Source of the DNA: Amphiscolops sp. MND2022
Lineage: Eukaryota
NCBI GenBank assembly: GCA_964187785.1
Contig: OZ076409.1
Location: 9,736,001 to 9,800,000, forward strand
Length of the DNA: 64,000 nucleotides
Direction of reading: 5' to 3'
In this document: positions 4,518 through 59,297 of the stretch, piece after piece
Layout of the letters: every line of letters starts with the position of its first letter
How positions within the stretch are numbered: position 1 is the stretch's first letter
The notes under the pieces: model-generated
Seen by the model: only the letters and a program-made list of their open reading frames with translations
Told to the model about the DNA's origin: nothing
The model's database searches: none
Position numbers and translations under genes: made by a program

Positions 4518-7365
4518 AGCAAGACACAAATTAGCGCAAATCTATTCGACAGTTTCACAAAAATCAGTTTTATGGGTGGAAGTTCTTGGGGCGTCGCAGT
4601 TTTATTGAAAAATTACATCGCTTACTCAAGACTTAAACAACTCGAAGACACCTCTGTTGATAATGTTGTTTTGACTGTTAGGCTGAGCGGAATTAAGTTA
4701 GTTGTGTCTACTGCATATGTCAGACCCGATGACTTCGAAGGATTGAGGAGTACAATAAAAGTTATACAGAGTTGCAAAACGTCTGTTGACAAAAATTGCC
4801 TGAATGGAGCTCCTTTCTTTGGTGATCTCAATGCAAGACATACCTATTGGGGAGACAAATCGTGTAACTTGTTAGGTGAGGAACTAGTTCAAAGAGCTGA
4901 CCACTTCAGCATTCTCAATGATGGTGAGCCTACGTTTTCGGCAGCAAATAGATACAGTGTTATCGATCTCTGCATTTGTTATGCCTCTGTTTGATAGATG
5001 TTAACACTCTCTGTCTACGGATGAAATTGCTGAGCTGTTCATCGGTGCTCCACAGAGGGGTCATGTTCCTGTTATTATGAGATTGGAACGTAGTAGCATC
5101 ACTGAGAAAACCAAGAAATTATGGATTGAAAAAGCTGATTGGGTAGGTTGGACTTCTTCTGTTGAGGGCCGAATAGATGATCTCATGGTTGTTGGGGACG
5201 ACCCTGTTTTTCTTTTGAACGAGTTCAAGAATCTGCTGCACGAAGCTTCCTTTGGTCATATACCCCTCAAATGTGTTTCAAATCATAGCAAACCGCTTTG
5301 GAACCCAGACTTGACAGACGCAAGCAATGAACTCCAATTTTTACGCAAAAACTCCAAGTACAAATCAAATTTTAAAAACGGACAAAAGCTAAAGGCAGCG
5401 AAGGAACGTTTCAAAATTCTACTCAACAAAAATGTAACTGAATGGATGGAAAACTATCTGTCATTGATTGGGCATAAAAGAAGAAGAGAATTTTGGACTT
5501 CTTACAAGGCCTTACTCAACACTAAACATGAAGAACTTGGTCTAATACGCAGTAAGGAAGGGAGACTCTTAATGCTCCTGAGGAAATTAGCGAAGAATTA
5601 GAAACCACGTTCTTCGGAGGAGAACATCTGAAAAAAAACAAATTTTCAACGATGCAACACAACTACAAGTAGAAGCCAAAAAAAGAACTTGGTCTAATAC
5701 GCAGTAAGGAAGGGAGACTCTTAATGCTCCTGAGGAAATTAGCGAAGAATTCGAAACCACGTTCTTCGGAGGAGAACATCTGAAAAAAACAAATTTTCAA
5801 CGATGCAACACAACTACAAGTAGAAGCCAAAATAAATCAACCACGTGATTGTCCTGAACATGATATTGAAGTATTTCATGATGAAACTTTTTGCGATGAA
5901 TTGGAGAATTCTATTTTGAATTCAAGCAACACCAAGTCTTTTGATATTGATGGTCTCCATTCGACAATGATAAAGACTTTGGGAATTAAAGCCCTCTTTT
6001 TTCTGCCGAATGTTTTCAATGCTTGCTGGGAGTATCAGTGTGGCCATGGACGGAGTCACGAGTCAGTCATATTCATACGCAAACCAAACAAAGAGAGATA
6101 TGATGAATGCTCTTCATATCGACCACTCTCAATCTCCAGTCATGTCGGCAAAACGTTGGAAAGAATACTTGCAACTAGAATCAAATCACATCTCGATGTG
6201 AATGGACTGCTTGGTGACGAACAGGAGGGTTTCAGATCGAAAAGAAACACCACTCGATCCCTCTACAGACTACATCTCATGCTGGAAAATGCCAAACGTT
6301 CACGTGCACCGACGTTTCTGCTTAACATTGACCTCGAAAAAGCTTTCGATAACGTGTGGGTGGAGGGCCTTCTCTTTGAACTGTTGGAACACAATATTTC
6401 TGGCAAAATGTATCAGATATTGAAATTGTTCCTAAAAACCAGAGTTGCTTCAATTGAACTGAATGGATACCAATCGCCGAAGTTCCAGATTGACATTGGC
6501 GTTCCACAGGGAAGTGTGTTGTCACCCATACTCTTTATCATCTTCCTAAACGACTTGTTCAGTGACCAAGCTCAAAAATTCAAGTTTGCAGACGCTAGTT
6601 CTTTCATTGCCACTGGCATGGATCCGTCAGAATTATCTGCCATCCTTCGAAAATCTTGTTCTGACATCGAGAAGTGGTGTGCAGATTGGAGGATGTTAGT
6701 GAACGGAGGAAAAACTGAATTAATCCTTTACAATTGCGAAGAGAATGACTTCGAACTCCCGTGTCTCAATGGTGATAAATGAGAAATCCCGGGATCATTC
6801 TACCAAAACTATCGAGAGAGCAAAGCGAAATTAGAACATAATCAAGTCGTTATGCAGTGGAAAATAGAGCCTTGCAGTTCCAACGCTAGTTCTGTTATAC
6901 AAAACCACTATCTTACCCTCACTTTTTTATGCAGCACCAATTTGGCTTGAGAAAAACCTCAAATACGTCACAGCAGTACAAAACAATTTCACAAGGACAT
7001 TTTTAAGACACGGATTTTCGCCGAATATCACCTCATGTCAAGTTCTGCTAGGAACGCCGCCTCTTGATCTTCTGAGTACAGTCATCAACGTCAAATTTCT
7101 CTTGAAGCTCAAACTAGAAGACGATTTACTACCTTGTACCCATGATGCATCTTCATCTTTTCCGGACAGTGTTGCTAACCTCGGGAGTCATGTTACCAGA
7201 TTCGGAAAGTTTTCGAGAATTCATAATTGTACGAGATATGAACAGCAAGATGTCAACCTTTTCATTAACTATCTTTGGAACCTCAGGTGGAAAAATAACG
7301 ACAACAAGTCATTTCTGAAATGTTACACCAAACCCCCACCAAATTGTAACACTATATCGTCTTTT
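1667..7365. repeat. Tandem duplication of ~2.85 kb (1667-4517 / 4518-7365)
   Basis: Junction ...atcgtctttt|agcaagacac... at 4517/4518. The copies differ by a few substitutions and homopolymer indels. Confidence 0.97.
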
Positions 7366-7525
7366 CAACCTTCAAAGGTATGAAGCTATCGAAATTTGTG
7401 AAATGCTGATCGGCAATTCTTTCGCTTTAGCCGATTACGCTTGGAAAAACTGGCAGACGGAATCCGATGTGTCATTGTGGCAAAAAAGAAGAGACTACAG
7501 AACGTTTCTTTCTGGCATGTGGCCT
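4518..7525 (+). pseudogene. LINE ORF2 copy 2 (tandem duplicate plus the 3' end of ORF2)
   Basis: Near-identical to 1667-4517 and shares its lesions (FADA, frameshifts). Continues past 7365 into the ORF2 C-terminus. Confidence 0.92.
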
Positions 7526-20610: not shown

Positions 20611-22153
20611 AACTTTTCAAAATTTGATAAGGAATTGTTGATGGCATCGTGCCAAATGATGGTGGGTCGATCATTGTTGAAATTGGCATTCTTTAGGGCA
20701 TGCTTCAACTTTTTGTTAAGAGAACTTGCACCAATCACATTGAACTTCATCATAGCCACTTGAAATGAAAGAGATCATTTGGACTACGCACATGTATTCG
20801 CTTAACAAACCCGCTAAAGTATTGAACATTCGAAAGAACAAGCTAGCTACTCGTTCATCAATAACTTTGTACGTAACTTTCAATCCAAATCAGAAAATTA
20901 AAAAACGTTCCGGACAAATGAGGCCGAGTATAACTCTTGCCGTAACGGTTATAGAATTTTCGATTAGTTAAAGCCGATTTAACGTACGTTGAGAACTTAC
21001 TAAATATGTATATCAAAACTAGGCCGAGCATTGCTCATGTTGAATAAAAAACAAAAATTTAAATCATCGAGGTTGAGTATTACCCATGCTGTTTAAATTT
21101 AGAAATGATAAGCTGAACAGAAAACGTTCACGTACTAAAGTTCAATGTAAAGTATATAAAATAAAGGAGTTAAATAAAGTAAATTAATGAGATAAACTAA
21201 AGCTGTTATTTTATACCATTCTTTTGATCTTCGTATGTTGCTCTAACTCGGCGTCGTACCTGTAAAACAAATAGATTTTAGACAACAATGAGAAATAATT
21301 TTTAAAGGAAACTACATTATAAAATGAGAATGTACCAAAGTGTCTCCCCTTCAATTTTTGAGATTTTGGAACATAATAGATGTTTGAAAATTCCAAAGAG
21401 TTCCCCGTTTCAGATTTTTTGGCATTATGAGACTTATCAAATTTCATTTTTCATCTGATATCAGGTTTTCTCAATACGTATCCACCAATCAATACTATCC
21501 GAAGTTTGAACTCAATATTCGGAGTAAAGCGCTATATCCGAATTTTTGACGTCATATGACGTTTTTTTTACCGTTGACTACTCATTTGTTGGGTGGTGCT
21601 GCAGTTGTTACAATCAGAGACTTTTAGCAAACATGCCACAGTTTTGGCATTTGGTAACAAATCGTCTCCTTCGAGGAGGCAATTTGCAAATCATGATCTG
21701 AAAGACAAAAAAATCTTTTGAATGTAATGAAATGAAATATCGATGGGCCCATATGTAGACTGGTCATTAGTAGACGTATAATCGTAACCGAAAAGTATGC
21801 TCTCAAATTGTATAATTGTTGCAAAAGTTCATGAAAATCGTAATCTAAGTAAACCATTATGAATCACTTTTTGAAATGAGTTTCAAGTAGATTAGAAAGA
21901 CTAAAGAACTCGATCAGTTAATCAAAAGTTTTCAAGAGTTAATAAAAACGTTTTCAATTTAACAAACGCGCATTAGACAAACGCAAAACTAATAGGATTC
22001 AACTCATCATCAGTAAATGAAAACAGTAAATCGCAAGTCACAATGCGTTAATAAACAGTTCACAATTTAAACGAAAGTGTTTAAAAAGCTGATCACAAAA
22101 CAGAAATCTAGCTTCCATGTTGCATCAAACAACTGAACGCAACAACAAAGAAC

Positions 22154-22747
22154 TATTTATTAAAATTCAATTTTCCAAGATACTGTCTCTTTGACGGCCG
22201 ATTTTTTCCAGGAATTCGCCATTTTCCAGGACCTCTGGTCAGTCCAATTAAACTTTGGCATAGCTGCAGAATCTCGAAACATTTAAATTCTAAGTTTTTG
22301 TTTGGATGGAGAACTGTAGTATCATTAGATTTATATTCTGGCGGCAGATATCTTTCATGTCCAGGTAAATTATTCCTGGCGGTGACCCATCCGGGAGGCA
22401 GGAATTAAAGTAAATCACAGAATCATTCCTGAGGAAAAACAGGAAGGCAACAACACCATATGCTCTGCATTCGTCTAGGTAATCATACAATTCTTTTCTA
22501 CTGAGAGCCAAACTCTTTAAAAAATTTGATGAGGAATTGTGGATGGCATCGTGCCAAATGATGGTGGGTCGATCATTGTTGAATTTGGCATTCTTTAGGG
22601 CATGCTTCAACTTTTTGTTTGGATATCCTTTAACATCTCTAGTGAATGCCTTCCCTGGTTCTGATTTTGTTTCATTTGGTCTTTTGTCAGGCCCTAATGT
22701 TTTATTTTGCCAAGAGAACTTGCACCAATTACATTGAACTTCAACAT
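22154..22747 (-). pseudogene. SGNH/GDSL hydrolase-like ORF, copy A (others at ~24156-24746, 26432-26728, 20620-20753)
   Basis: Stitched reading gives MLKFNVIGASS (block I-like), SEPGKAF (II), IIWHDAI(H/N)NS (III) and DTTVLHP (V), in SGNH order; frameshifted. Confidence 0.55.
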
Positions 22748-24899
22748 AGCCACTTGAAATGAAAGACAGATCATTTGGACTACGCCCATGTATTCGCTTA
22801 AAAAACCAGCTAAAGTATTGAACATTCGAAAGAACAAGCTAGCTACTCATTCATCAATAACTCTGTACGTAACTTTCAATCCAAATCAGAAAATTAAAAA
22901 ACGTTCCGGACAAATGAGGCCAAGTGTAACTCTTGCCGTAATGGTTATAGAATTCTCGATTAGTTAAAGCCGATTTAACGTACGTTGAGAACTTACTAAA
23001 TATGTATATCAAAACTAGGCCGAGCATTGCTCATGTTGAATAAAAAACAATTTAAATCATCGAGGTTGAGTATTACCCATGCTGTTTAAAATTAGAAATG
23101 ATAAGCTGAACAGAAAACGTTCACGTACTAAAGTTCAATGTAAAGTATATAAAATAAAGGAATTAAATAAAGTAAATTAATGAGATAAACTAAAGCTGTT
23201 ATTTAATACCATTCTTTTGATCTTCGTATGTTGCTCTAACTCGGCGTCGTACCTGTAAAACAAATAGATTTTAGACAACAATGAGAAATAACTTTAAAAG
23301 GAAACTACATTATAAAATGAGAATGTACCAAAGTGTCTCCCCTTCAATTTTTGAGATTTTGGAACATAACAGATGTTTGAAAATTCCAAAGAGTTCCCCC
23401 TTTCAGATTTTTTGGCATTATGAGACTTATCAAATTTCATTTTTCATCTGATATCAGGTTTTCTCAATACATATCCACCAATCAATACTATCCGAAATTT
23501 GAACTCAATATTCGGAGTAAAGCGCTATATCCGAATTTTTGACGTCATATGACGTTTTTTTTACCGTTGACTACTCATTTGTTGGGTGGTGCTGCAGTTG
23601 TTACAATCAGAGAGACTTTTAGCAAACATGCCACAGTTTGGGCATTTGGTAACAGATCGTCTCCTTCGAGGAGGCAATTTGCAAATCACGATCTGAGAGA
23701 CAAAAAACTTTTGAATGTAATGAAATGAAATATCGATGGGCCCATATGTAGACGGGTCATTAGTAGACGTATAATCGTAACCAAAAAGTATGCTCTCAAA
23801 TTGTATAATTGTTGCAAAAGTTCATGAAAATCGTAATCTAAGTGAACCATTATGAATCACTTTTTGAAATGAGTTTCAAGTAGATTAGAAAGACTAAAGA
23901 ACTCGATCAGTTAATCAAAAGTTTCCAAGAGTTAATAAAAACGTTTTCAATTTAACAAACGCGCATTAAACAAACGCAAAACTAATAGGATTCAACTCAT
24001 CATCAGTAAATGAAAACAGTAAATCGCAAGTCACAATGCGTTGAAAAACAGTTCAGAATTTAAACGAAAGTGTTTAAAAAAGGTGATCACAAAACAGAAA
24101 TCTAGCTTCAATGTTGCATCAAACAACTGAACGCAACAACACAACACAAAGAACTATTTATTAAAATTCAGTTTTCCAAGATACTGTCGCTTTGACGGCC
24201 GATTTTTTTCAGGAATTCGCCGTTTTCCAGGACCTTTGGTCAGTCCAATTAAACTTTCGCATAGCTGCAGAATCTCGAAACATTTAATTTCTAAGTTTTT
24301 GTTTGGATGGGGAACTGTAGTATCATAAGATTTATATTCTGGCGGCAGATATCTTTCATGTCCAGGTAAATTATTCCTGGCGGTGACCCATCCGGGAGGC
24401 AGGAATTCAAGTCAATCACAGAATCATTCCTGCGGAAAAACAGGAAGGCAACAACACCATATGCTCTGCATTCGTCTAGGATATCATACAATTCTTTTCT
24501 AGTGAGAGCCAAACTCTTTAAAATTTGATAAGGAATTGTTGATGGCATCGTGCCAAATGATGAGGGGTCGATCATTGTTGAAATTGGCATTCTTTAGGGC
24601 ATGCTTCAACTTTTTGTTTGGATATCCTTTATCATCTCTAGTGATTGCCATCCCTGGTTCTGATTTTTTTGTTTCAATTGGTCTTTTGTCAGGCCCTAAT
24701 GTTTTATTTCAAGAGAACTTGCACCAGTTACATTGAACTTCAACATAGCCACTTGAAATAAAAGACAGATCATTTGGACTACGTACATGTATTCGCTTAA
24801 CAAACCCGCTAAACCCGCGGACAAATGAGGCCGTGTATAACTCTTGCCGTAAAGTGTTATAGAATTCTCGATTAGTTAAAGCCGATTTAACGTACGTTG

Positions 24900-27631: not shown

Positions 27632-30600
27632 TCCATCCGAATTTCTGAAGCGTTTTTTCCACCACGCAAGGCTTCCTTTTGGGTGAAACTTTTTTGTGAG
27701 TTTTTCATTTAAAAAACGTCATGAGCATGTTTTGAAAACATTGCACTTTTTGAGCCTTAGATATAGCGCCGACTTTGGCCGTTCCCGGTTTGTTAAATTT
27801 AAGTGTTGACTTTGTTTGTCAAGATTGTCGATGTCTTTCAGCAGAGGTGTCATATTTATTCAAGCAACCGCCCTTAAGAGTCGCACTATCGCAGATATGA
27901 AAAATGAAACTCTCGGTTCTTTTCGAAAAAAAACATTGCTACAAGTTTATGTTACTATCCTTTTTGGCAACTATGAATTTTCTGGTAGTTATATGGATTT
28001 AGGTAGACTTTCTGAAAATTGTTTTGTTTGCCAAATTAGCTGTAGTAATCAGGACAAAATCAGGTTATTTTAGAGAAAGATTTCGAAAATCGCTGTGCCA
28101 AAAAAACACCGGGAAAACCCTTTTGTCTCAAAGTTTTGTAATTCAAATTAAATAGAAGAAAATCAAAGGGGAACCCTTTGTACCCTTTTGACCTTCGTTA
28201 GATCTCATTCGTAGTCAGGGTTGCTTAAAAATCGGATTCTTATTTATCGCTTGATTTGAATCAGATTTTTGTTTTTTGCTTGATTTGAATGAATTTTATT
28301 CTCATTGGGGAAAACGAGGTTTGTTTCAAAGATCAATTAGTTCATTGAACTAAAGCATTGAATATATTGATTCAGAATACGGAAACAAAATACGAGTTTT
28401 CCACATTTTTCAATTCCCAGTCGATTTCTCATACTGGAATGCTCGAAACCAAATGTGCTGAACAGCCTCTGTAATTCAGCCGTTGTAGTCATGCATGACA
28501 GAATCCTTTGGATGCGTTCCTTCAATTCGCTGTCCATCGGCACTAAGGAGTACCAGTCGGCAGGACTCACAGCATGAAGAGCCTCATCCGTAAACATGGT
28601 CGGCATGAAAGCCTCTTAGCCAACTCGAAACTTTATTATAATTCCAACCAGCTTCGGGTCCAATTTCAGGTCCATCCGAACTTCTGAAGCGTTTTCCCAC
28701 CACTCAAGGCTTCCTTTTGGGTGAAACTTGTTTGTGAGTTTTTCATTTAAAAAAACGTCATGAGCATGTTTTGAAAACATTGCACTTTTTGAGCCTTAGA
28801 TATAGCGCCGACTTTTGCCGTTCTCGGCTTGTTAAATTTGAGTGTTGACTATGTTTGTCAAGATTGTCGATGTCTTTCAGCAGAGGTGTCATATTTATTC
28901 AAGCAACCGCCCTTAAGAGTCCCACTATCGCAGATGTGAAAATGAAACTCTCGGTTCTTTTCGAAAAAAAACATTGCTACAAGTTAATTTTACTATCCTT
29001 TTTGGCAACTATGAATTTTCTGGTAGTTATATGGATTTAGGTAGACTTTCTGAAAATTGTTTTGTTTGCCAAATTAGCTGTAGTAATCAGGACAAAATCA
29101 GGTTATTTTAGAGAAAGTTTTCGAAAATCGCTGTGCCAAAAAACACCGGGAAAACCCTTTTGTCTCAAAGTTTTGTAATTCAAATTAAATAGTAAGAAAA
29201 TCAAAGGGGAACCCTTTGTACCCTTTTGACCTTCGTTAGATCTCATTCGTAGTCAGGGTTGCTTAAAAATCGGATTCTTATTTATCGCTTGATTTGAATC
29301 AGATTTTTGTTTTTTGGTTGATTTGAATGAATTTTATTCTCATTGGGGAAAACGAGGTTTGTTTCAAAGATCAATTAGTTCATTGAACTAAAGCATTGAT
29401 TATATTGATTCAGAATACGGAAACAAAATACGAGTTTTCCACATTTTTCAATTCCCAGTCGATTTCTCATACTGGAATGCTCGAAACCAAAGGTGCTGAA
29501 CAGCCTCTCTAATTCAGCCGTTGTAGTCATGCATGACAGAATCCTTTGGATGCGTTCCTTCAATTCGCTGTCCATCGGCACTAAGGAGTACCAGTCGGCA
29601 GGACTCACAGCATGAAGAGCCTCATCCGTAAACATGGTCGGCATGAAAGGCTCTTAGCCAACTCGAAACTTTATTATAATTCCAACCAGCTTCGGGTCCA
29701 ATTTCAGGTCCATCCGAACTTCTGAAGCGTTTTCCCACCACTCAAGGCTTCCTTTCGGGTGAAACTTGTTTGTGAGTTTTTCATTTAAAAAAACGTCATG
29801 AGCATGTTTTGAAAACATTGCACTTTTTGAGCCTTAGATATAGCGCCGACTTTTGCCGTTCTCGGCTTGTTAAATTTGAGTGTTGACTATGTTTGTCAAG
29901 ATTGTCGATGTCTTTCAGCAGAGGTGTCATATTTATTCAAGCAATCGCCCTTAAGAGTCCCACTATCGCAGATGTGAAAAATGAAACTCTCGGTTCTTTT
30001 CGAAAAAAAAACATTGCTACAAGTGTATGCTACTTATCCTTTTTGGCAACTATGAATTTTCTGGTAGTTGTATGGATTTTGGTAGACTTTCTGAAAATTG
30101 AATTGTTTGCCAAATTAGTTGTAGTAGTCAGGACAAAATCAGGTTATTTTAGAGAAAGTTTTCGAAAATCGCTGTTCCAAAAAACACCGGGAAAACCCTT
30201 TTGTCTCAAAGTTTTGTAATTCAAATTAAATAGTAAGAAAATCAAAAGGGGAATCCTTTGTACCCTTTTGACCTTCGTTAGATCTCATTCGTAGTCAGGG
30301 TTGTTTAAAAATCGGATTCTTATTTATCGCTTGATCTGAATCAGATTTTTGTTTTTTGCTTGATTTGAATGAATTTTATTCTCATTGGGGAAAACGAGGT
30401 TTGTTTCAAAGATCAATTAGTTCATTGAACTAAAGCATTGAATATATTGATTCAGAATACGGAAACAAAATACGAGTTTTCCACATTTTTCAATTCCCAG
30501 TCGATTTCTCATACTGGAATGCTCGAAACCAAAGGTGCTGAACAGCCTCTCTAATTCAGCCGTTGTAGTCATGCATGACGGAATCCTTTGGATGCGTTCC

Positions 30601-33600
30601 TTCAATTCGCTGTCCATCGGCACTAAGGAGTACCAGTCGACAGGACTCACAGCATGAAGAGCCTCATCCGTGAACATGGTCGGCATGAAAGGCTCTTAGC
30701 CAACTCGAAACTTTATTATAATTCCAACCAGCTTCGGGTCCAATTTCAGGTCCATCCGAACTTCTGAAGCGTTTTCCCACCACCCAAGGCTTCCTTTTGG
30801 GTGAAACTTGTTTGTGAGTTTTTCATTTAAAAAACGTCATGAGCATGTTTTGAAAACATTGCACTTTTTGAGCCTGAGATATAGCGCCGACTTTTGCCGT
30901 TCTCGGCTTGTTAAGTTTGAGTGTTGACTATGTTTGTCAAGATTGTCGATGTCTTTCAGCAGAGGTGTCATATATATTCAAGCAACCGCCCTTGAGAGTC
31001 GCACTATCGCAGATGTGAAAAATGAAACTCTCGGTTCTTTTCGAAAAAAAACATTGCTACAAGTTTATGCTACTTATCCTTTTTGGCAACTATGAATTTT
31101 CTGGTAGTTATATGGATTTAGGTAGACTTTCTGAAAATTGAATTGTTTGGCAAATTAGCTGTAGTAATCAGGACAAAATCAGGTTATTTTAGAGAAAGTT
31201 TTCGAAAATCGCTGTGCCAAAAAACACCGGGAAAACCCTTTTGTCTCAAAGTTTTGTAATTCAAATTAAATAGTAAGAAAATCAAAGGGGAACCCTTTGT
31301 ACCCTTTTGACCTTCGTTAGATCTCATTCGTAGTCAGGGTTGCTTAAAAATCGGATTCTTATTTATCGCTTGATTTTAATCAGATTTTTGTTTTTTGGTT
31401 GATTTGAATGAATTTTATTCTCATTGGGGAAAACGAGGTTTGTTTCAAAGATCAATTAGTTCATTGAACTAAAGCATTGATTATATTGATTCAGAATACG
31501 GAAACAAAATACGAGTTTTCCACATTTTTCAATTCCCAGTCGATTTCTCATACTGAAATGCTCGAAACCAAAGGTGCTGAACAGCCTCTCTAATTCAGCC
31601 GTTGTAGTCATGCATGACAGAATCCTTTGGATGCGTTCCTTCAATTCGCTGTCCATCGGCACTAAGGAGTACCAGTCGGCAGGACTCACAGCATGAAGAG
31701 CCTCATCCGTAAACATGGTCGGCATGAAAGGCTCTTAGCCAACTCGAAACTTTATTATAATTCCAACCAGCTTCGGGTCCAATTTCAGGTCCATCCGAAC
31801 TTCTGAAGCGTTTTCCCACCACTCAAGGCTTCCTTTCGGGTGAAACTTGTTTGTGAGTTTTTCATTTAAAAAACGTCATGAGCATGTTTTGAAAACATTG
31901 CACTTTTTGAGCCTTAGATATAGCGCCGACTTTTGCCGTTCTCGGCTTGTTAAGTTTGAGTGTTGACTATGTTTGTCAAGCCGTTCTCGGCTTGTTAAGT
32001 TTGAGTGTTGACTATGTTTGTCAAGATTGTCGATGTCTTTCAGCAGAGGTGTCATATTTATTCAAGCAATCGCCCTTAAGAGTCCCACTATCGCAGATGT
32101 GAAAAATGAAACTCTCGGTTCTTTTCGAAAAAAAAACATTGCTACAAGTGTATGCTACTTATCCTTTTTGGCAACTATGAATTTTCTGGTAGTTGTATGG
32201 ATTTTGGTAGACTTTCTGAAAATTGAATTGTTTGCCAAATTAGTTGTAGTAGTCAGGACAAAATCAGGTTATTTTAGAGAAAGTTTTCGAAAATCGCTGT
32301 TCCAAAAAACACCGGGAAAACCCTTTTGTCTCAAAGTTTTGTAATTCAAATTAAATAGTAAGAAAATCAAAAGGGGAATCCTTTGTACCCTTTTGACCTT
32401 CGTTAGATCTCATTCGTAGTCAGGGTTGTTTAAAAATCGGATTCTTATTTATCGCTTGATCTGAATCAGATTTTTGTTTTTTGCTTGATTTGAATGAATT
32501 TTATTCTCATTGGGGAAAACGAGGTTTGTTTCAAAGATCAATTAGTTCATTGAACTAAAGCATTGAATATATTGATTCAGAATACGGAAACAAAATACGA
32601 GTTTTCCACATTTTTCAATTCCCAGTCGATTTCTCATACTGGAATGCTCGAAACCAAAGGTGCTGAACAGCCTCTCTAATTCAGCCGTTGTAGTCATGCA
32701 TGACGGAATCCTTTGGATGCGTTCCTTCAATTCGCTGTCCATCGGCACTAAGGAGTACCAGTCGACAGGACTCACAGCATGAAGAGCCTCATCCGTGAAC
32801 ATGGTCGGCATGAAAGGCTCTTAGCCAACTCGAAACTTTATTATAATTCCAACCAGCTTCGGGTCCAATTTCAGGTCCATCCGAACTTCTGAAGCGTTTT
32901 CCCACCACCCAAGGCTTCCTTTTGGGTGAAACTTGTTTGTGAGTTTTTCATTTAAAAAACGTCATGAGCATGTTTTGAAAACATTGCACTTTTTGAGCCT
33001 GAGATATAGCGCCGACTTTTGCCGTTCTCGGCTTGTTAAGTTTGAGTGTTGACTATGTTTGTCAAGATTGTCGATGTCTTTCAGCAGAGGTGTCATATAT
33101 ATTCAAGCAACCGCCCTTGAGAGTCGCACTATCGCAGATGTGAAAAATGAAACTCTCGGTTCTTTTCGAAAAAAAACATTGCTACAAGTTTATGCTACTT
33201 ATCCTTTTTGGCAACTATGAATTTTCTGGTAGTTATATGGATTTAGGTAGACTTTCTGAAAATTGAATTGTTTGGCAAATTAGCTGTAGTAATCAGGACA
33301 AAATCAGGTTATTTTAGAGAAAGTTTTCGAAAATCGCTGTGCCAAAAAACACCGGGAAAACCCTTTTGTCTCAAAGTTTTGTAATTCAAATTAAATAGTA
33401 AGAAAATCAAAGGGGAACCCTTTGTACCCTTTTGACCTTCGTTAGATCTCATTCGTAGTCAGGGTTGCTTAAAAATCGGATTCTTATTTATCGCTTGATT
33501 TTAATCAGATTTTTGTTTTTTGGTTGATTTGAATGAATTTTATTCTCATTGGGGAAAACGAGGTTTGTTTCAAAGATCAATTAGTTCATTGAACTAAAGC

Positions 33601-34995
33601 ATTGATTATATTGATTCAGAATACGGAAACAAAATACGAGTTTTCCACATTTTTCAATTCCCAGTCGATTTCTCATACTGAAATGCTCGAAACCAAAGGT
33701 GCTGAACAGCCTCTCTAATTCAGCCGTTGTAGTCATGCATGACAGAATCCTTTGGATGCGTTCCTTCAATTCGCTGTCCATCGGCACTAAGGAGTACCAG
33801 TCGGCAGGACTCACAGCATGAAGAGCCTCATCCGTAAACATGGTCGGCATGAAAGGCTCTTAGCCAACTCGAAACTTTATTATAATTCCAACCAGCTTCG
33901 GGTCCAATTTCAGGTCCATCCGAACTTCTGAAGCGTTTTCCCACCACTCAAGGCTTCCTTTCGGGTGAAACTTGTTTGTGAGTTTTTCATTTAAAAAACG
34001 TCATGAGCATGTTTTGAAAACATTGCACTTTTTGAGCCTTAGATATAGCGCCGACTTTTGCCGTTCTCGGCTTGTTAAGTTTGAGTGTTGACTATGTTTG
34101 TCAAGCCGTTCTCGGCTTGTTAAGTTTGAGTGTTGACTATGTTTGTCAAGATTGTCGATGTCTTTCAGCAGAGGTGTCATATATATTCAAGCAACCGCCC
34201 TTGAGAGTCGCACTATCGCAGATGTGAAAAATGAAACTCTCGGTTCTTTTCGAAAAAAAAAACATTGCTACAAGTTTATGCTACTTATCCTTTTTGGCAA
34301 CTATGAATTTTCTGGTAGTTATATGGATTTAGGTAGACTTTCTGAAAATTGAATTGTTTGGCAAATTAGCTGTAGTAGTCAGGACAAAATCAGGTTATTT
34401 TAGAGAAAGTTTTCGAAAATCGTTGTGCCAAAAAACACCGGGAAAACCCTTTTGTCTCAAAGTTTTGTAATTCAAATTAAATAGTAAGAAAATCAAAAGG
34501 GGAACCCTTTGTACCCTTTTGACCTTCGTTAGATCTCATTCGTAGTCAGGGTTGCTTAAAAATCGGATTCTTGTTTATCGCTTGATTTGAATCAGATTTT
34601 TGTTTTTTGCTTGATTTGAATGATTTCTATTCTCATTGGGGAAAACGAGGTTTGTTTCAAAGATCAATTAGTTCATTGAACTAAAGCATTGATTTTATTG
34701 ATTCAGAATACGGAAACAAAATACGAGTTTTCCACATTTTTCAATTCTCAATCGATTTCTCAAACTGGAATGCTCGAAACCAAAGGTGCTGAACAGCCTC
34801 TCCAATTCAGCCGTTGTAGTCATGCATGACAGAATCCGTTGGATGCGTTCCTTCAATTTACTTTCCATCGGCACTAAGGAGTACCAGTCGGCAGGACTCA
34901 CAGCATGAAGAGCCTCATCTGTAAACATGGTCGGCATGAAAGGCTCTTTGCCAATCCGAAACTTTATTATAATTCCAACCAGCTTCGGATCCAAT
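27632..34995. repeat. Tandem array of 7 x ~1.04-kb units (HINE 3' end + spacer + hAT terminus + hAT transposase 3' end)
   Basis: Units start TCCATCCGAA at 27632, 28671, 29709, 30751, 31790, 32876 and 33915; the last unit runs into the full hAT element. Confidence 0.97.
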
Positions 34996-36553
34996 TCTTT
35001 GGCCAAGTTCATAGCTTCTTCAATTTCAAGGGGTGTCAAAATGTCTTCACTGCGAAACCGTGGATCCAAATAATAACTAAAATAATGGATGGGAGTAAGG
35101 GCTTTTGGTTTTCGTTTAGCAAAGGCTTGTCTTTGTGCTGTATCAAGAATAGAGCCAAGTTGAGAAGATAAATAAGTCCAAATTTTCACAGCATCCGATA
35201 AATTAATGTTTGAAGCTTGAATTTTTTCTAATGCGCAACTTATAGGGTCCAGAATAGACAAGTAATCTTCCACGTTTCGTTTCAAATTGAGGTTTGTTAT
35301 AGCCTCATAAACGTCTTTCGCCATTTCTAGGCGAATCTGTTCAGCATTTCCGACCAAAGTGGGCCATGCTTCAATATGGGTTCTCAGGCTGTCACGGGTG
35401 CTTTTCCATCTGGTGTCATTTAGTAGTACCAATTTTCGACCGTTCTTTTCGTGCAATCAGGCACCATTTCTTCAATAACTCCTTCCGACAACGCTTTTCG
35501 CATCTTTTGCACGTTAGCAGCATTATCGGTGACAAAGCCACACACTTTGAAAGTGTATTTCGAAACGTTCTTTACCATGGAGTCTTGTGCAATCCTTACC
35601 AAGTTTTCAGTTGTTTGCGACATCCCTGTTGTATCGACATTTTCGAGCAAAAACGTGGTGCCATTAAGCAGTTGCACTAACACATATGATTGGCTCATTA
35701 TAACGATTTGACCAACCATCCAAATTGAGCGGTACAAAGCCGTCTTTTAGGGTAATTTTTGCTTTTTCTGTACATTCCAAATGCACTTCATCTAGCAACT
35801 TTCCCGAAATATCTTTTCGACTTGAGGGCGTATAACTGGCCCTTAACGATTTGCAAAGATCCTTGAAGGCATCGTGTTCCACATGTAAGAATGGGGTGTT
35901 TGTGGCGTGAATATAGCGCGCCACTTTCATATCCAGTCCATGTTCTTCATCTTTGCTATATGAGCTGATGAATTTAGTTATTTTAACCGTTTTCTTTGGA
36001 GTGCGCGTCTCATTCTGCTCACTGCCCAATTTCTCTTCTGACGCTTCATTCGATTCACAATTCCTTGCATTCCTTTCTCACAGGTGTTGCATATAGCCCA
36101 TGGTCCTTTGTTGCCTTCCAGAAACATCAAGCATTTAATGTTACACAGTTTTGACATTTCTGTTAACAAAAAATGAACAAGGAAAATTAGTATGTTTTTA
36201 AATATATGTACACAATGGTTTTCTACCTTTGTGGTTTTCCGAAAGTGGTTGCAAATTTCATCAAGAGGTCGGCCAGGCATCATCAACAAAACTCTGGAAA
36301 CGTACAGACATTTTGCTAATATTTCAACCTGAAGATGCGGACTAAGTTTCAGAAGCATGAAAAATGAGAAAACTAACAGAACAATGTTAACTAATAAAAA
36401 ATTAATTATAAAAATAGGTCTAATAACGAAGTTAATTGCACGCACTAATCAGAATAAAACTTCAACTATATGGTTAAAAACACTATTGATTCAAATGATT
36501 TTTATTTTCTGATTTAAATCGGGTTCAAATCATTGATTCAAATCAAGGCACTG
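34547..36553 (-). mobile_element. hAT-superfamily DNA transposon, decayed (BED finger, DUF659-like region, dimerisation domain)
   Basis: AICNTCEKGMQGIVNRMK (BED-like), LNLDGWSN, FVTDNAANVQKM, DTRW, ELERLFSTFGFEHSSLRNRL. Ends CAGGGTTG.../...GGCACTG with GATT(T/C)(A/G)AATC subterminal repeats. Frameshifts; no matching TSD seen. Confidence 0.9.
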
Positions 36554-40043: not shown

Positions 40044-40738
40044 AAAAGCCGAGTCATACAGCCAATAAAATTAATTGAGATGATGCTTTCTAAATTGATC
40101 ATTATGAAAATCGGCCATTTGGTTTCGCTTTAAAATCGACCATTTTGTAACGTTTTCAAAATTGGCCATATAGTTATGTTGAATATAGGACGAATATTTT
40201 GTGAAAACCTGATACTTTCTCAAATCATTTGAGTCTGAGAACACCACTGAATCTATGATATCGCAACGAAGTTTCTTGATAATTTAAAGACTTTCCAATG
40301 CCAGCAAAACTGTGATATAATTCTAGGACAATACGCCCAAAGACATTACGCCCAATAATTATACATATAAGAATCTTCCAAATTAGTGGGCGTAATGTCT
40401 TCGTGCGTATTGTCCTAGAACTGCTAGGTGATTTCATCACTTACTCAATTTCATTTTCACTGGCTTTTGAAAGTCTTTGAATTATCAAGAAGCTTTGTTG
40501 CGATATCACTAGTCCAGTGGTGTTCCCAGATGCAAATGATTTTAGAAAAGTATCAGATTATTGCCTAAAAATTCATCCGATATTCAACATAGCAAAAGGA
40601 CCAATTTTGAAAACGTCACAAAATGTTCGATTTTAAAACGTTACAAAATGGCCGATTTTCAAAATGACCAATTTAGAAAACATTATTTTATCGAGTTAGT
40701 TATCTATATTATTTTTATCGGCTGTATGACTCTGCTTT
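40044..40738. mobile_element. Foldback/palindromic element (~690 bp) with an inner 100-bp inverted-repeat module
   Basis: Arms pair along most of their length (GAGTCATACAGCC/GGCTGTATGACTC; AAAATCGGCCATTT/AAATGGCCGATTTT). Inner TTCTAGGACAATACGC...GCGTATTGTCCTAGAA at 40321-40420. Confidence 0.8.
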
Positions 40739-43677: not shown

Positions 43678-44596
43678 ATTTCATGCAGCCGCATTTTGCT
43701 GATTCGGAAATTTTCTGGTTCTTTACTCCTCGTCACGGTGTTAGAAGCAGTGAATTAGGTCGCTTGTAAGCGACGTAATGTAGAAAATACCGACAGCGAA
43801 AATGATCACGGAAATTGGCGCTACTTTGATTGGTCGGAACTATTTCTCAATTTTCAGAATATAGTAACCGTGCCGGGCCTGTTGGGCATCGGAATAGTTG
43901 ACAAGCATCATCACTGAATTCGGAAATGTTACCCTTAGACTTTTCAAAAGCATAGTTGTCTAGTACTCAGCGTTAAACTCGACACCAGTAGAATTGAAGC
44001 ACTTCTTTTGTACCAGTATTTTGTTGACAAAATAGTGTAACAGATCAAATTCGAAAATTCGCAGTTGTTGAAAAATTGAATTGCTTTGCCACAAAACTTT
44101 TCCAAAAAGCGCCGCTTACGCTTTAGGGGGTCAGTCACAAGCGCAACAAGTGATAGAACAAGCGTTTTTTGGAAAAACCTAATTCACTGGATAGTTTTAA
44201 TTATGTTTTAATTTTGATGACTTTCTTGAAGTAAACTCATAATAGTGAGTTGCCTCTCCAGAATCGAATTATACTGGATCGAAAATGATAATTCATTTTA
44301 AATTTCGAAACTAAAATTGGTTGTATGACACGGCCTTTCTCCCTCCTTCAAGTCGACCTTCTTCGAAACCTGCCGTTGGCTTTGTAGCGGCATGTCGCTT
44401 CGCTTCGCTACTGAATTTAGGGCACTATATATATGGTGTAATGGTAATGAAAATTTCACCTCATGAAAATCAAGTCACAATTCGATTCTAGATAATTTTG
44501 CTAATTTTTCGATCCTACATGATTCGGCTCTGCAAAGCAATCCCATAATAGTAAATGATTTGGTTTGACTTTCGTCGTATTTGTGTTTCATTTCAG

Positions 44597-45070: not shown

Positions 45071-45373
45071 CAGGGTTTTGACATCGCTATTTTTTCGCTA
45101 AACCGCTAGTTTCAAAATCACTATACGCTGAAAAACGTTTTCGTCAAACTATTTAACGTTTGACTTTAATGATAATTCAGTTTTGGCAAGGTAAAAGACC
45201 AGAACTTGTCTTACTGAGTGAGTTTTACAAGAGTAAGAGTCGAAATTCATCTTGAAACTCCATGTATATTAAAGGAAGTTTTGAATTTGGACTAAATATT
45301 AGTCGACGCTAATTCGAATCGCTAAAAAATTTGCGCGACCGCTGTTTCGCTAATTAGCGGTGTCAAAACTCTG
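45071..45373. mobile_element. hAT-type MITE in the GBE1 3' UTR region
   Basis: TIR CAGGGTTTTGACA/TGTCAAAACTCTG; 8-bp TSD CTGTACTC/CTGTCCTC (7/8). Confidence 0.85.
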
Positions 45374-48603: not shown

Positions 48604-48939
48604 CAGAGTTTTGACACCGCTAATTAGCGGTGGCCAAGGAATTTGACTAATAGAATGTCCAAATTCAAAACTTCCTCTGAATATACCCGGAATTTCACAA
48701 TAAATATGGAAATATTCCTACCCTTGCCATCGTAAAACCTACACATAAAAAAATCCCTGTACAGTAGTATAAAAACACTGTATAAAAGTCTATTTTCTCG
48801 CAAACCTAATTTCGGTTACTAGTCAATTTTGAAAGTCAAACATTCAATACTTTGTAGAAAAAACCTTTTCAGCAAAATAGCGATTCTTAAATTAGCGGTT
48901 TAGCGATTAGCCGAAAAAATTAGCGATGACAAAACCCTG
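48604..48939. mobile_element. hAT-type MITE (same family as 45071-45373)
   Basis: TIR CAGAGTTTTGACA/TGACAAAACCCTG; TSD ACTCTGAT/ACTTTGAT (7/8). Confidence 0.85.
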
Positions 48940-49072
48940 ACTTTGATGAAAGTATTTAATCTCAATAATTACGAGATCAAAACTATACCTTTCTGGGGGA
49001 TTTGATTCTTTGAACCGTAGCCTTTTCAGAATCTAATGGGATTCTGGTTTCAATAAGAACTCGGCGACTGTC

Positions 49073-50301
49073 ATGGATCCGCTAAAACAGGCTTCCCTGA
49101 TTGACCAATGGGACGCAGATGCCCTTACGTCATTAATCAATGACGTCATTATCAACAAACTCAAAGGAATCACTGAAATATATCCAGTCTTGTACAATAC
49201 ATGGGATCGCTTCAGAGTTGACTCCGTTATCCAGTTTCTTATCACTTTTTCGTGTCTCAAACGTCACTCTTGCCTCCCGGGTCAAAAGCTTCTCAATATT
49301 TCCATGAACAGCCAGAAATCAGACAAGCCGCGGCTTCTATCCTTGCTTGATTGTCTGAAGTATGCGTCTGTTGAATTGCTGATCAGATTTTTACAAAACC
49401 CCTCATTGAACCATTTTGACATATCCAAGTTACTGCAAAGTTATAAGACCAAGGGAACAGAGTTTTGACACCGCGAATTAGTGAATTAGCGGCCGCGCAG
49501 AATTTTTGAAGCTATTTTATTAGCGATTCAAATTAGCGGCAAATTCAAAATTTCCTCCGGGTATACACGGAGTTTCAAAACGAGTTTCGAAAAATTGCAA
49601 CTCTTAACCCTTGTGAAGCCCACACAGCATGAAAAGTTCTAGTCTTTTTCTCGCGAAAACTGAATGAAGTTATCTTTCAATTTCAGAACATACTTGAAGT
49701 CAATCGAAAAAAAAACTATTTCAGCGAAATAGCGGTTTTAGAATTAGCGGTTTAGCGATTAGCGAAAAAAATAGCGATGTCAAAACCCTGTAAGGGAGGA
49801 ATTTTCACGAAAGAGTTCTATCTGGTATTTCGGTGGTTCGCTGCTATCACTGTTAGATTGTCAGTCCTACTAAATGAAGTGACTTTCATAGCTTCTGGCA
49901 GATACAAAAAGCTGCCCGATCGAATTTTCAAGTTCAACTCAGTCTCTGTTACCGGAAGTGACGGAGCATTAAATGCTGATTCAGTGCCAAGAGAGATTTT
50001 ATGGAAACTTAGTTTTGGAGTAATTTACATAGCTGTAACCACATTTATGAGACTACAGTGGTTTCACAGACTGTTCAGAAATGTGGAAAAAAGGATAAGG
50101 AATGATCACGGGGAGAAAGAGACAAGGGACGATGCTTGCCCGGTTTGTGGTTTGGTGCCAACGATGCCTTGCAAAGTGAAACCATGTGGTCACGTTTACT
50201 GCTACTATTGCATTCATCAGAAACTGAGGGTAGAAACTTCCAACTCATTCTGCAGTCGTCGCAAATGTTATGTTAAAATTGATACATACAATTTCATGTG
50301 A
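49073..50301 (+). CDS. PEX2: Peroxin-2-like RING E3 ligase, interrupted by a MITE (functional status uncertain)
   Basis: IDQWDADAL, LPGQKLLNI, FIASGRYKKLPDRI, PREILW and C3HC4 RING CPVCGLVPTMP...CGHVYCYYC match the Pex2 layout. AATAAA at ~50401. Confidence 0.8.
49458..49790. mobile_element. hAT-type MITE inside the PEX2 reading frame
   Basis: TIR CAGAGTTTTGACA/TGTCAAAACCCTG; TSD CAAGGGAA/TAAGGGAG (6/8). Confidence 0.88.
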
Positions 50302-51258
50302 ATAGAATGAACAGAATTAATTTAGTTTAGAATGTTTTGCTTTTTCAGTGTCAAAGGCCGTTTATCGAGAAAAAAAAAACGAGAAAAGTGGCAGAAGGTA
50401 AATAAAAGTATTACATGAACTTCGGTGTATCTATTGGGAGGTACTGATTACAGCAGTGTGAATGTGTAATTTGAAATAACACAAGGGTCTATATATAATG
50501 TGTATGTGATGTGTATGTGATGCTCTGGTGATAGGTTGAATGGCCGAACGGTAATATCGCAGAAAAAATTATAGCCGAACCGAATCCAATTCTTAATTGT
50601 GATTGGACGCTCGGATCGACAGTGAACTTTGAATGTGTGACTAGGGATGGCAGAAATCCACGGCGTGACACTTACGTGAAAAACCAAATTCGCATAAATC
50701 CGTGCCATTAGCGTGTAATCGACGATCAAAAGCATTTTTGAAGAATTTTGTTAAACTTTCAGTGAAATGTTCATCCAAGGAAAACGTAATTCTTGTCAGT
50801 TTTTACCAAAACTTTTAGGTTTTGAGTAGTCAATGCGAAAAAAAACTTTTAAAATTGTTACGTGAAAATGTAAATGTAGATTGCGGGATAGTTGTAATAA
50901 AAATGAAGCTACTTCAAATTAATATAGGAGAAAGTGTTTCTTTGCCCGTGAAATCGTGTGCTTTTGATAGATTTTTGTGAATTTCTGCGTGGAATTCTGC
51001 ATTTTTACGTGAAGGTTATAAGGCTGTCAGGGGGTCTATAGGTTGAGCGTATTCGCAGTGGACGACCAATGCGCGTTCGTTTTCGGATAGAAATGGCATC
51101 TGTATTCGCGACGCGTGTTTGGAAATTCCTATTTTTTTCCGTCAAATAAACTGCGCGCTCCTTAATGCGCCAGTCATTGGCAATTCTATTGGAAGTTTCG
51201 AAAAACAAAGTTTCTCTTCAATGTTTCAGTTTATTGGAGGGTTATTTGAGCGCGGGTT

Positions 51259-53605: not shown

Positions 53606-55258
53606 CACTATGGTAGCAAAAAGGGACGTACAGCTGAAAATTGAATTTTATCCAATTTGTGGACCTTCATTTTTCATTCTCAACCGGAAGTGAAATCAAT
53701 CACTCTTGAATTAAGTCCATTGTTGAAAATGGTCAAACCGTTGGATATATGGGTATATACCTGGGTATATCATACAAAGAAATTAAAGAAAAGTTGGGCC
53801 TTAAATCTCGATCGACAGCTCATACAGCTTATCAGCGTTTTTTGAGAACGAATTCTTATGTGGCGAAAAAACTTCCAGGCCGGCCAGAAATTCTCAGCGA
53901 AAAAGAGCAAAGACTAATAGTTCTAAGAGTGGAAAAAGACCTAAAAACAACATTAGAACGAGTAAGAGTACTACAAAACTTTTTCAACGTCAAAAACAGT
54001 TTCTAGATGTACTATTCGAAGAATTGTTTCTAGAAAAGCCGCGGAAAAGGTCAACTTGAACAAAAACAATGACCGATCAGAAAACGCTGGTGCTTGAGAA
54101 TGTTGAAAAAGCCCCTTGGTTTTTATCCAGCTTCAATTTTCCACCGAAAATGGGAAAAAGTTTTGGAATTTTTTGAAAGAAAAATTATTTGGAAAAAATC
54201 TCAAATTGCCGAAAAAACTGAAACGAAATGAAAAGTTTTATCATATCAATCACTTACGTAGTGAACTAATAGCGCTTTTGATGGTGCTCCTAATAATACA
54301 AGACGGGAACATCTAAAGTTGGCGCTAAACCTAAGGCTCAAAAAGCGCAAAGTTGAGAAAATCTGATCAGGACTTTCACGAAAAGACAAAAAACCTCGAA
54401 ACACCAAAATATCACAAAGTTTGAAAGTGGACCGTTTAGTCTCGTTCGGTTTCGTATGTTACGTTCAAAAAGGCCTAAATGAGAGGGGGGACCTCTGCAC
54501 TACCTTAGATGTTCGCTGGCCAGTTTTGGGTGGTACTGTAAACTTGAAGAATGTTTTTTTTTCACTCGATATTTTGCATTTTTGTTTATTTTTGGCCGGA
54601 TGGAAGCTAGGCTTCTGGGAAAACGTCGCATTCTCAGACGAATCCCGCGTGCGCTTGAATAGTGACGGCGTTGTGCGGGTGTTCAGGAAAACTGGTCGTC
54701 GCTTTTGCCCCAAAAACACCCAATGACTAAACAAAGACAAAAGATCTATGATGTTTGGGGGCCATCAGATCAGATGGCAGGAAAATGCTCAATAAATGTC
54801 CAGCAACACTCAACAGTTACGGATATTTGGAGATTTTAAGGCAATACGATCGACATTTGAATATACCGGATTTGGTGTTCCAGCAAGACAACGCCCCAGT
54901 ACACAAAAGTGGAGTTGTTCGCAATATTCTAGCCCAAAAGCAATGGGAGGTGCTGGATTGGCCAGCTTACACTCCTGACCTGAATCCTATTGGAAATATT
55001 TGGGCCATTTTTAAAAAAAGCTTACGAGTTCAGATTGTTACCTGGGGTACTTTAGACGAAAAGGTTATGGAAGTGTGGAACAACATAAACCCTGAAGTTG
55101 TTCGCAACTTGTACTCATCGTATGAGAATCGCCTGGTGAAGGTAATCAAAAACCATGGAAGTTTGACGGGATATTGATTTATTATTTGTTTCAGCGGTTG
55201 TTTCAAATTTTACTCTGTTCTGAGTTTTTTTAAAATGTTACTTTTTGATACCATAGTC
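53606..55258 (+). mobile_element. Tc1/mariner transposon, decayed, with a nested ~0.5-kb insertion (~54120-54606)
   Basis: TA-flanked TIRs CACTATGGTAGCAAAAAG / CTTTTTGATACCATAGTC. HTH region with PGRP; FSDESR, FQQDNAPVH and WPAYTPDLNPIGNIW (catalytic E appears mutated to G). Confidence 0.92.
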
Positions 55259-58528: not shown

Positions 58529-59297
58529 GTTAGCATCAGTGAATTAGGTTTTACCAAAAATTTAGCATATCGCTTGTTGAGCTTGTGACTGGCCCGCTAA
58601 CGCTTAAGCGGCGCTTTTTGGAATACAACTTTGGATGGTGAACTTCAAAAGCTGAAATTTCTTGACATTTCGAACTTTTGAAAGTTTCGATCAGTTACTC
58701 TTCTCAACAAACTACAACCACCACAAAAGGTAAATCGTTCAGCTGTACTGGTATCGGGTGAAACGCCCAATACAAAAAACCTTAAATGTTAGAGTTAGGC
58801 ACTTTTCGTTTCCAAAATCGCTAAAAACTTTGGCCAATCAGGTAAGCGCAAATTTCAGTCGTCGCTTTCGCTTTCAGCGCTTATTCGGAAATTGCGTCGC
58901 TTTCACTTCTTTTGCGCTTTTGCTTACAAGCGACCTAATTCACTGGTTAGCATCATCATTTTGGAAGTGCAACTCACAGGAAGCTATGAATCTGCAATGG
59001 TCTTAAGTTTTTACGTGGCGGTCTTTTTGAGAGCTCGTTTTTTGTTGAAAATAGTGAAAATAGTTACCATGTTTCTTCTAGGAAGCCCCAAATTTATCGC
59101 AAATTTTCGCCATGAATTAAAGTTAGCAACTTTTAATTGTGAATCAATGTAAAAGATAGGATGATGTCGACATCAATTATTATTTTGTCAGAAATTTCAG
59201 CGCAAACGACTGCGGCCGCTTTTTTCATTTTTTTCATCAATTTGGGTATTTTTCACCACTCTGAGTGAAAGCACTCGGGGCGGTTCTGCGAAACTGC

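Follow-up and report, generated by a model that had tools for sequence, protein, structure and literature searches.

Maize Ds1 and Ds elements are reportedly spliced from exons, as in Adh1-Fm335, according to work by Wessler in 1991 and Giroux in 1994. An 8-bp TSD, short TIRs and subterminal repeats together make up the Ac/Ds (hAT) pattern (excerpt of PMC3260210). Introners, which may recruit splice sites from the neighbouring exon and so add or delete codons, have been surveyed by Gozashti et al. 2022 (excerpt of PMC9860276), and the excerpted main text of that survey makes no mention of acoels. The window studied here is a 64,000-nucleotide stretch of contig OZ076409.1 from the acoel Amphiscolops sp. 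MND2022. As read from its DNA, it holds a real, well-defined insertion in a gene, PEX2, that is probably living; a transposon lies in an exon, and the gene is probably rescued at the RNA level.

PEX2 is interrupted by one MITE and is otherwise intronless. Its parts and immediate surroundings are as follows.

49023 to 49029, plus strand: T-rich acceptor-like site in the 5' leader, resembling the acceptors of the neighbouring GBE1 gene; putative end of a cis intron or spliced-leader site.
49036 to 49056, plus strand: upstream ORF of six codons, ending 16 nt 5' of the true start (from translation and ortholog starts).
49073 to 49457, plus strand: 5' half of PEX2, from the orthologous start ATG at 49073 to the end of the left TSD; 74% and 61% identical to P0002 and P0003, respectively (tblastn).
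49458 to 49790, plus strand: hAT-type MITE of 333 bp within PEX2, with 13-bp TIRs at 49458-49470 and 49778-49790.
49798 to 50301, plus strand: 3' half of PEX2, with the C3HC4 RING at about 50137-50253 and the stop codon at 50299-50301.
50401 to 50406, plus strand: AATAAA, from the sequence a likely poly(A) signal.

The two frames that flank the element are halves of one gene, and the RING is borne by the 3' half, whose Pfam matches are zf-C3HC4_2 (E 1.2e-6, above the cut-off) and Pex2_Pex12 (E 0.004, below it). The architecture is that of PEX2, a Pex2/Pex12 membrane region followed by a C-terminal C3HC4 RING, with the membrane domain match below the cut-off. When the 3' half was used as the query, 3 of 15 candidate proteins matched: the window ORF and two relatives, 291 and 296 aa long, each an intact single ORF. 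A profile search brought in one further intact protein, more distant and 295 aa in length (333 matches at E ≤0.001, best 150 examined). PEX2 or peroxisome-assembly names were attached to 3 of the 10 top profile matches that were looked up. The best PDB sequence match was 7t92_A, "Peroxin-2" (E 0.00094), and the structure model of an intact ortholog (mean pLDDT 85) had its best fold match with the same chain (E 1.5e-9), followed by chains B and C. At 17% identity, this fold match is that of a highly diverged protein. Although the collection includes RefSeq proteins from two acoels, none of the close matches listed was a named acoel PEX2; the intact acoel-like PEX2 matches were all unnamed, which may be an annotation gap for a diverged single-exon gene. 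In JGI metagenome contigs, a scan for PEX2 relatives gave 193 pattern matches, of which 0 were confirmed. The literature on acoel peroxisomes yielded no mention of acoels among the matches listed.

A first-pass annotation of this DNA had noted that the ATG at 49036 is out of frame with the ORF and had suggested either a second lesion or a uORF. Orthologs P0002 and P0003 start at the residue matching the ATG at 49073, and P0004 has an 8-residue extension ahead of it. Because P0002 and P0003 begin at the Met of ATG 49073, we read ATG 49036 as a six-codon uORF, and the second lesion is refuted by the same starts. Compared with three orthologs, the protein has a 3-residue insertion near residue 84 (49322-49330 region), so in-frame indels do occur in this lineage.

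The main observation of that annotation, a MITE in the PEX2 coding sequence with both halves open, is confirmed by the 333-bp element, its TIRs and two relatives in the window. The features of the family and of the insertion site are these.

45071 to 45373, minus strand: third MITE copy, about 40 nt past the GBE1 stop; 8-bp TSD with 1 mismatch.
48604 to 48939, plus strand: second MITE copy, 134 nt 5' of the PEX2 start codon; 8-bp TSD with 1 mismatch.
49450 to 49457, plus strand: left TSD copy, equal to the inferred ancestral target.
49466 to 49468, plus strand: in-frame TGA within the left TIR, terminating the 5' ORF.
49777 to 49779, plus strand: ATG on the inner border of the right TIR; opens a 174-aa ORF (P0001) in the frame of the 3' half.
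49791 to 49801, plus strand: right TSD copy, with C>T at its first base and a 3-nt duplication.

All three copies have 13-bp TIRs of the identical type, and the copy at 45071-45373 is 70% identical over 338 columns. The traits of hAT MITEs were found throughout, with 13-bp TIRs, 6 to 8 subterminal 5-mer repeats per copy (8 plus 1 decayed copy in the PEX2-borne element), lengths of 303-336 bp and stops in three frames. The TSDs are also of hAT type, with 7 of 8 bases matching in the two relatives and, at the PEX2 copy, an 8-bp target that has undergone two changes. There are 3 copies of the family in the 64-kb window, 1 of the 3 being inside coding sequence. All three lie in or beside genes (past the GBE1 stop, before the PEX2 start and within PEX2), which hints at a preference of the family for genes. 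Every one of the three copies has the ATG at the edge of the right TIR, which makes it a family feature. An unusually stable RNA fold was ruled out: the TIRs pair, and the whole fold is of ordinary stability (z -1.15). A composite transposon formed from the 48604 and 49458 copies was also rejected, as the outer flanks do not match. The TIR had 0 matches in JGI metagenome contigs, and Rfam gave nothing within 44-54 kb of the window.

Other mobile and repeated sequences are present in the window. A broken hAT transposase (34698-36553, minus strand; PF05699 dimerisation domain E 0.0008, below the cut-off) lies inside the long GBE1 intron and has a CAG-type end, different from the MITE TIR. A second, CAG-ended MITE family is found at 58537-58945 (perfect 8-bp TSD) and 43748-44189 (no clear TSD), with an end at 25740. 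A LINE-like element (596-7383; endonuclease, reverse transcriptase) consists of two tandem copies of about 2.85 kb with 99% identity and frameshifts, the result of tandem duplication or an assembly artefact. About seven tandem copies of a unit of about 1040 bp fill 27632-34996 (91-97% identity), further 2-kb duplications lie at 20711-24813, and a degraded Tc1/mariner-like transposase is present at 53710-55177 (DDE_3, E 3e-12).

Deletion of 341 nt, the MITE plus one 8-mer, leaves an open frame of 295 codons, which bears out the earlier statement that removal of 49458-49790 with one TSD copy restores the frame; deletion of 344 nt gives the ancestral length. The junction in three intact orthologs (K-T-K-G-V-F or Q-K-Q-G-I-F) has one residue fewer than the 341-nt join. 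As the empty site is one codon shorter than this join, the left TSD appears ancestral and the right copy appears to carry the C>T and the 3-nt duplication. The first-pass annotation had counted two differences in eight TSD positions and no stops in either half; the halves are indeed clean, but by the orthologs the right copy differs by C>T and a 3-nt duplication. The C>T falls at a third codon position and also makes a GT donor with a +5 G at 49790, and the duplication is in frame and generates an AG ending at 49798. The simplest history would be an 8-bp target that is unchanged at the left and changed at the right by these two events; it is also possible that a Gly was duplicated earlier and that two substitutions came afterwards. 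On either reading of the sequence, two events are later than the insertion. Without splicing, the 5' half is a 131-aa ORF (P0005) that stops at the TGA at 49466-49468, before the RING, exactly as had been proposed, and stops are found in all three frames through the element (9, 8 and 4).

The insertion point corresponds to ortholog residue 125, in a turn between helices 114-124 and 129-157 of the model (mean pLDDT 85). In an alignment of 96 family members, the 9-residue windows at 123-125 are in the lowest 0.4-4.4% of 272 for occupancy, 19 of 272 residues are of low occupancy, and the length of the loop stretch varies from 0 to 29 residues across the family. Pex2 has five transmembrane segments, of which the first four helices form one unit apart from TM5 (excerpt of PMC9279156). 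When the helices of the model are counted off against these segments, the break would fall after segment 3 and before segment 4, facing the cytosol. A chance landing in the most gap-tolerant loop has a probability of at most about 7%, and this position of the insert, as judged from the model, adds support for a living gene.

Over all routes of rescue, we consider it likely that PEX2 is still alive. A tension between the aged TSD and the clean halves had been seen in the first-pass annotation; it holds, and has now been quantified by a rate test, by divergence and by simulation. The rate test was a protein relative-rate test with P0003 as the outgroup, used in place of dN/dS; it gave 20 unique substitutions for the window protein versus 19 for P0002, with branches of 0.180 and 0.179. 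Radical changes in the window protein came to 1/19 at otherwise invariant sites. In each of the three MITE copies, 5 of 96 gap-free terminal positions carry a change private to that copy, and the TSDs show 1, 1 and 2 events. Terminal differences and TSD events both point to about 5% divergence, an age estimate that fails if one repair event made both right-TSD changes and that includes terminal differences which may predate the insertion, having been inherited from different parent copies. Other TSD-bounded elements in the window are too few to calibrate TSD decay. Among 3,000 dead frames simulated at d=0.05, under our assumed parameters (transition bias of 2 and 0.1 indels per substitution), 15.6% were stop-free and 1/3000 also had at most one radical change; with indels added, 0/3000 were that clean (d=0.04-0.05). 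Integration over age, with two priors and conditional on the TSD, gave a clean-frame probability of 0.2-2.7%. The lack of a rate excess, the divergence of about 5% at the MITE ends alongside a clean frame, and the gap-tolerant loop are three lines that suggest a living gene.

A dead PEX2 is unlikely, if still a serious contender, and nearly all of its probability belongs to a fresh allele. The gene-breaking insertion may be a young unfixed allele, a just-killed gene or a haplotype mosaic, a set of readings that we regard as rather improbable. The right-TSD changes would then come from one error-prone repair event or, in the mosaic form, from an intact allele with a synonymous SNP and one extra Gly codon. 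A clean frame without rate excess is indeed what would be expected of a very young insertion; moreover, both changes are confined to one TSD copy, and the 13-bp TIRs differ at only 1/78 positions over three copies. In the empty-site Thr codon the C>T affects the third base, so that the right flank resembles a normal coding allele, and because the change is synonymous in the empty-site frame there is room for a mosaic with an intact allele. Insertions in exons are mostly harmful (PMC11282704), and heterozygosity is high in a related acoel assembly (excerpt of PMC9911081). Against such youth, two independent events in 16 TSD bases would have a probability of 0.4% at d=0.005 and 1.4% at d=0.01, a fresh insertion would be expected in this loop in at most about 7% of cases, and the terminal divergence of the PEX2-borne copy equals that of the other two. 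A search for a second intact PEX2, run on proteins in line with the first-pass annotation, found no intact same-species protein among the matches (3 of 15 candidates, 4 of 8,000 scored, best 150 of 333 profile matches), where a purged haplotype would be invisible. The literature gave no usable rate of imperfect TSDs in fresh hAT insertions. At the far end is a long-dead pseudogene, killed about 5% divergence ago when the MITE family was active, with PEX2 lost or replaced. Stops in three frames through the element and the imperfect TSD agree with it, but it is largely refuted by the simulations, in which 0/3000 frames at d=0.04-0.05 were that clean, and by the lack of a rate excess; we hold it to be extremely improbable.

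The splice sites that could rescue a living gene can be compared with those of GBE1 (glycogen branching enzyme; 14279-45029, plus strand), for which seven exons and six GT-AG introns were seen. One GBE1 intron of about 21 kb is repeat-filled, and an imperfect palindrome at 40045-40738 (74%, about 740 columns), probably another foldback element, lies at the start of the last. All 6 introns of this one gene have GT-AG ends, a donor with +5 G and a T-rich acceptor; two of the acceptors end in AAG. One GBE1 exon is 86% identical to Convolutriloba macropyga compared with 72-78% to other animals (120 of 3,419 matches listed), and per-exon identity to Symsagittifera and Convolutriloba is 58-85%, which marks the host as an acoel different from both. 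The sites usable for in-frame splicing of PEX2 do not follow the GBE1 pattern. The main candidate sites are as follows.

49440 to 49445, plus strand: cryptic GT donor without +5 G, in phase with AGs ending at 49762, 49774 and 49798.
49681 to 49724, plus strand: two T-rich CAG acceptors in the MITE, ending at 49686 and 49724 (from the sequence).

Imprecise cis-splicing is, on sequence grounds, the single most likely mechanism of rescue, although we hold it only tentatively, at somewhat short of an even chance. The starting point is what is observed, a hAT-type MITE that entered a PEX2 without introns where the protein has a short loop joining two long helices. The major spliceosome would pair the cryptic exonic GT at 49440 with the AG at 49762, 49774 or 49798, and most of the MITE would be removed, leaving a protein that is 5 residues shorter or 3 or 7 longer (289 aa with AG49798, 297 aa with AG49774 and 301 aa with AG49762, against an ancestral 294). 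This change in size would fall in a loop of widely varying length, which may allow enough full-length PEX2 to be made. Such splicing would be leaky at best, and we infer that for a peroxin of low abundance even leaky splicing could be enough. The 3-nt duplication of the right TSD may have been retained for creating AG 49798. The donor lies 18 nt outside the MITE and lacks the +5 G seen in 6/6 GBE1 donors, while the usable AGs near the right end of the MITE are purine-rich. The T-rich acceptors at 49686 and 49724 are out of frame from the GT at 49440, giving products of 125 and 124 aa, and upstream donors with +5 G give at best 272 aa. The six codons after this GT match P0002 exactly, as if still exonic, which is a weak point because it concerns only 18 nt. 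The TIR-internal donor at 49462 and the +5 G donors at 49353-49366 were rejected, with products of ≤277 aa that cut into helices, and simple readthrough was excluded by stops in all frames and a change of frame. That in-frame splice options exist had been put forward in the first-pass annotation, and the pairs GT49440-AG49774, GT49440-AG49798 and GG49454-AG49794 are indeed in frame. As evidence they count for little: in a rough simulation with the MITE placed at 1,590 position-orientation pairs of the coding sequence, 1,008 (63%) had an in-frame GT-AG option, so such options are ordinary and no evidence by themselves, while 4.7% of simulated insertions had an in-frame option with a +5 G donor. 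The intron gain in progress proposed there thus survives as the leading mechanism, less than firmly held, and is weakened by splice options expected by chance and by a GT donor without +5 G. The missing spliced PEX2 protein says nothing either way, for GBE1 likewise has no near-identical full-length match (best 86%, 120 of 3,419 listed).

Two other routes would also keep the gene working. Exact removal of a non-canonical intron, from GA49455 to AG49798 (294 aa, the ancestral length) or from GG49454 to AG49794 (295 aa, with an extra Gly), would preserve the frame in both cases. GA-AG introns with RNA-seq support are described in Eurytemora and Oikopleura (excerpt of PMC7072748), GA donors reach up to 40% in some introner families (excerpt of PMC9860276), and 2/6 GBE1 introns have AAG acceptors. 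However, the GBE1 introns are 6/6 GT-AG, genuine GA donors have a conserved AG before them (excerpt of PMC7072748) where here GG precedes GA49455, and the Drosophila table examined has 12 annotated cases of GA-AG and 0 of GG-AG. The GG...AG intron of the first-pass annotation is therefore in frame at 295 aa but has 0 Drosophila cases behind it and one residue more than the orthologs; we consider removal by either pair of ends very unlikely. A split gene is more plausible than this, if still doubtful, and is argued by analogy with a relative. Read-through RNA would give the 131-aa N-terminal piece, and a second mRNA, with 49777 as its first AUG, would give a 174-aa piece comprising the final two helices and the RING; this mRNA would arise by addition of a spliced leader to the unpaired MITE acceptor at 49686 or 49724, or by a start within the MITE, and the pieces would co-assemble in the Pex2-Pex10-Pex12 channel. 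Leaders are usually added at acceptors that have no strong donor upstream, as in nematodes. After both acceptors no ATG occurs before the in-frame 49777, and both right-TSD changes keep the 174-aa ORF open (a synonymous Cys codon and an in-frame Gly). An in-frame terminal ATG occurred in 197/795 (25%) of plus-orientation simulated insertions. The break in a loop suits a split gene, for which the evidence of a living gene is equally valid. Spliced-leader trans-splicing affects 30.2% of genes in the related acoel S. roscoffensis (excerpt of PMC9911081), from which it is extrapolated to this species. On the other side, no AATAAA is present in the MITE at which the first mRNA could end, and its ATG and stop are shared by the family and did not arise here as adaptations. 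The C>T also makes a strong donor at 49790, 13 nt past the ATG, which could mis-splice the second mRNA. As the first four Pex2 helices form one unit apart from TM5 (excerpt of PMC9279156), two pieces that enter the membrane separately would face a real obstacle. No precedent for a transposon-made split gene resolved by trans-splicing was found within the library searched. That the MITE split PEX2 at once into two working genes, an operon-like pair, by bringing a left-TIR stop with a right-end trans-splice acceptor and ATG, seems to us quite improbable.

Each outcome would be of interest. If the element is spliced, as we tentatively favour, PEX2 would offer one intron gain that can be dated, in a conserved gene that had no introns, with rescue via weak sites in a tolerant loop and not by an element made for splicing. 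Should the gene be split, transposons and trans-splicing would have a new way to create gene fission and operon-like pairs, and PEX2 could function as two chains. If it is dead and fixed, peroxisome import would be being lost in an acoel.

The locus resembles several known systems, and in its proposed way of working it is nearest to maize Ds and to introners. Like introners (excerpt of PMC9860276; PMC11282704), it has a MITE-like DNA transposon with TIRs and a TSD in the coding sequence of an aquatic organism, and its splice sites could be co-opted from the TSD or exon with gain or loss of codons. Introners, however, are families of at least four similar introns with similarity reaching both boundaries, whereas here 1 of 3 window copies is coding. 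Their similarity begins no more than about 10 intronic or 5 exonic bases from each of the two sites; the canonical donor is 18 nt outside the element, and only the GA or GG options come that close. On present evidence, with one coding copy in the window and a donor outside the element, the PEX2 MITE does not qualify as an introner. The MITE-derived non-canonical introns of Fritillaria borealis and Amoebophrya (as cited in an excerpt of PMC11282704) are similarly bounded by TIRs and a TSD and have poor canonical ends, but the introns of those genomes are mostly non-canonical and the six checked here are all GT-AG. Symsagittifera roscoffensis (excerpt of PMC9911081) belongs to a related lineage and supplies the trans-splicing machinery that a split gene needs; what is described in that excerpt, whose main text does not use the word operon, is 5' leader addition to genes and not a transposon break in coding sequence. 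The Pex2-Pex10-Pex12 retrotranslocation channel (PDB 7T92; excerpt of PMC9279156) provides the best sequence and fold matches, and here its PEX2 is interrupted. The likeness to maize Ds lies in a small non-autonomous exonic hAT element with an 8-bp TSD, short TIRs and subterminal repeats. Removal of Ds is said to use cryptic sites near the element ends, the same route that we propose for the PEX2 MITE, which has no strong donor in the element. The Ds cases are laboratory or cultivar alleles with RNA evidence, while the present case, read from DNA alone, is a wild animal gene in which the insertion has apparently aged.
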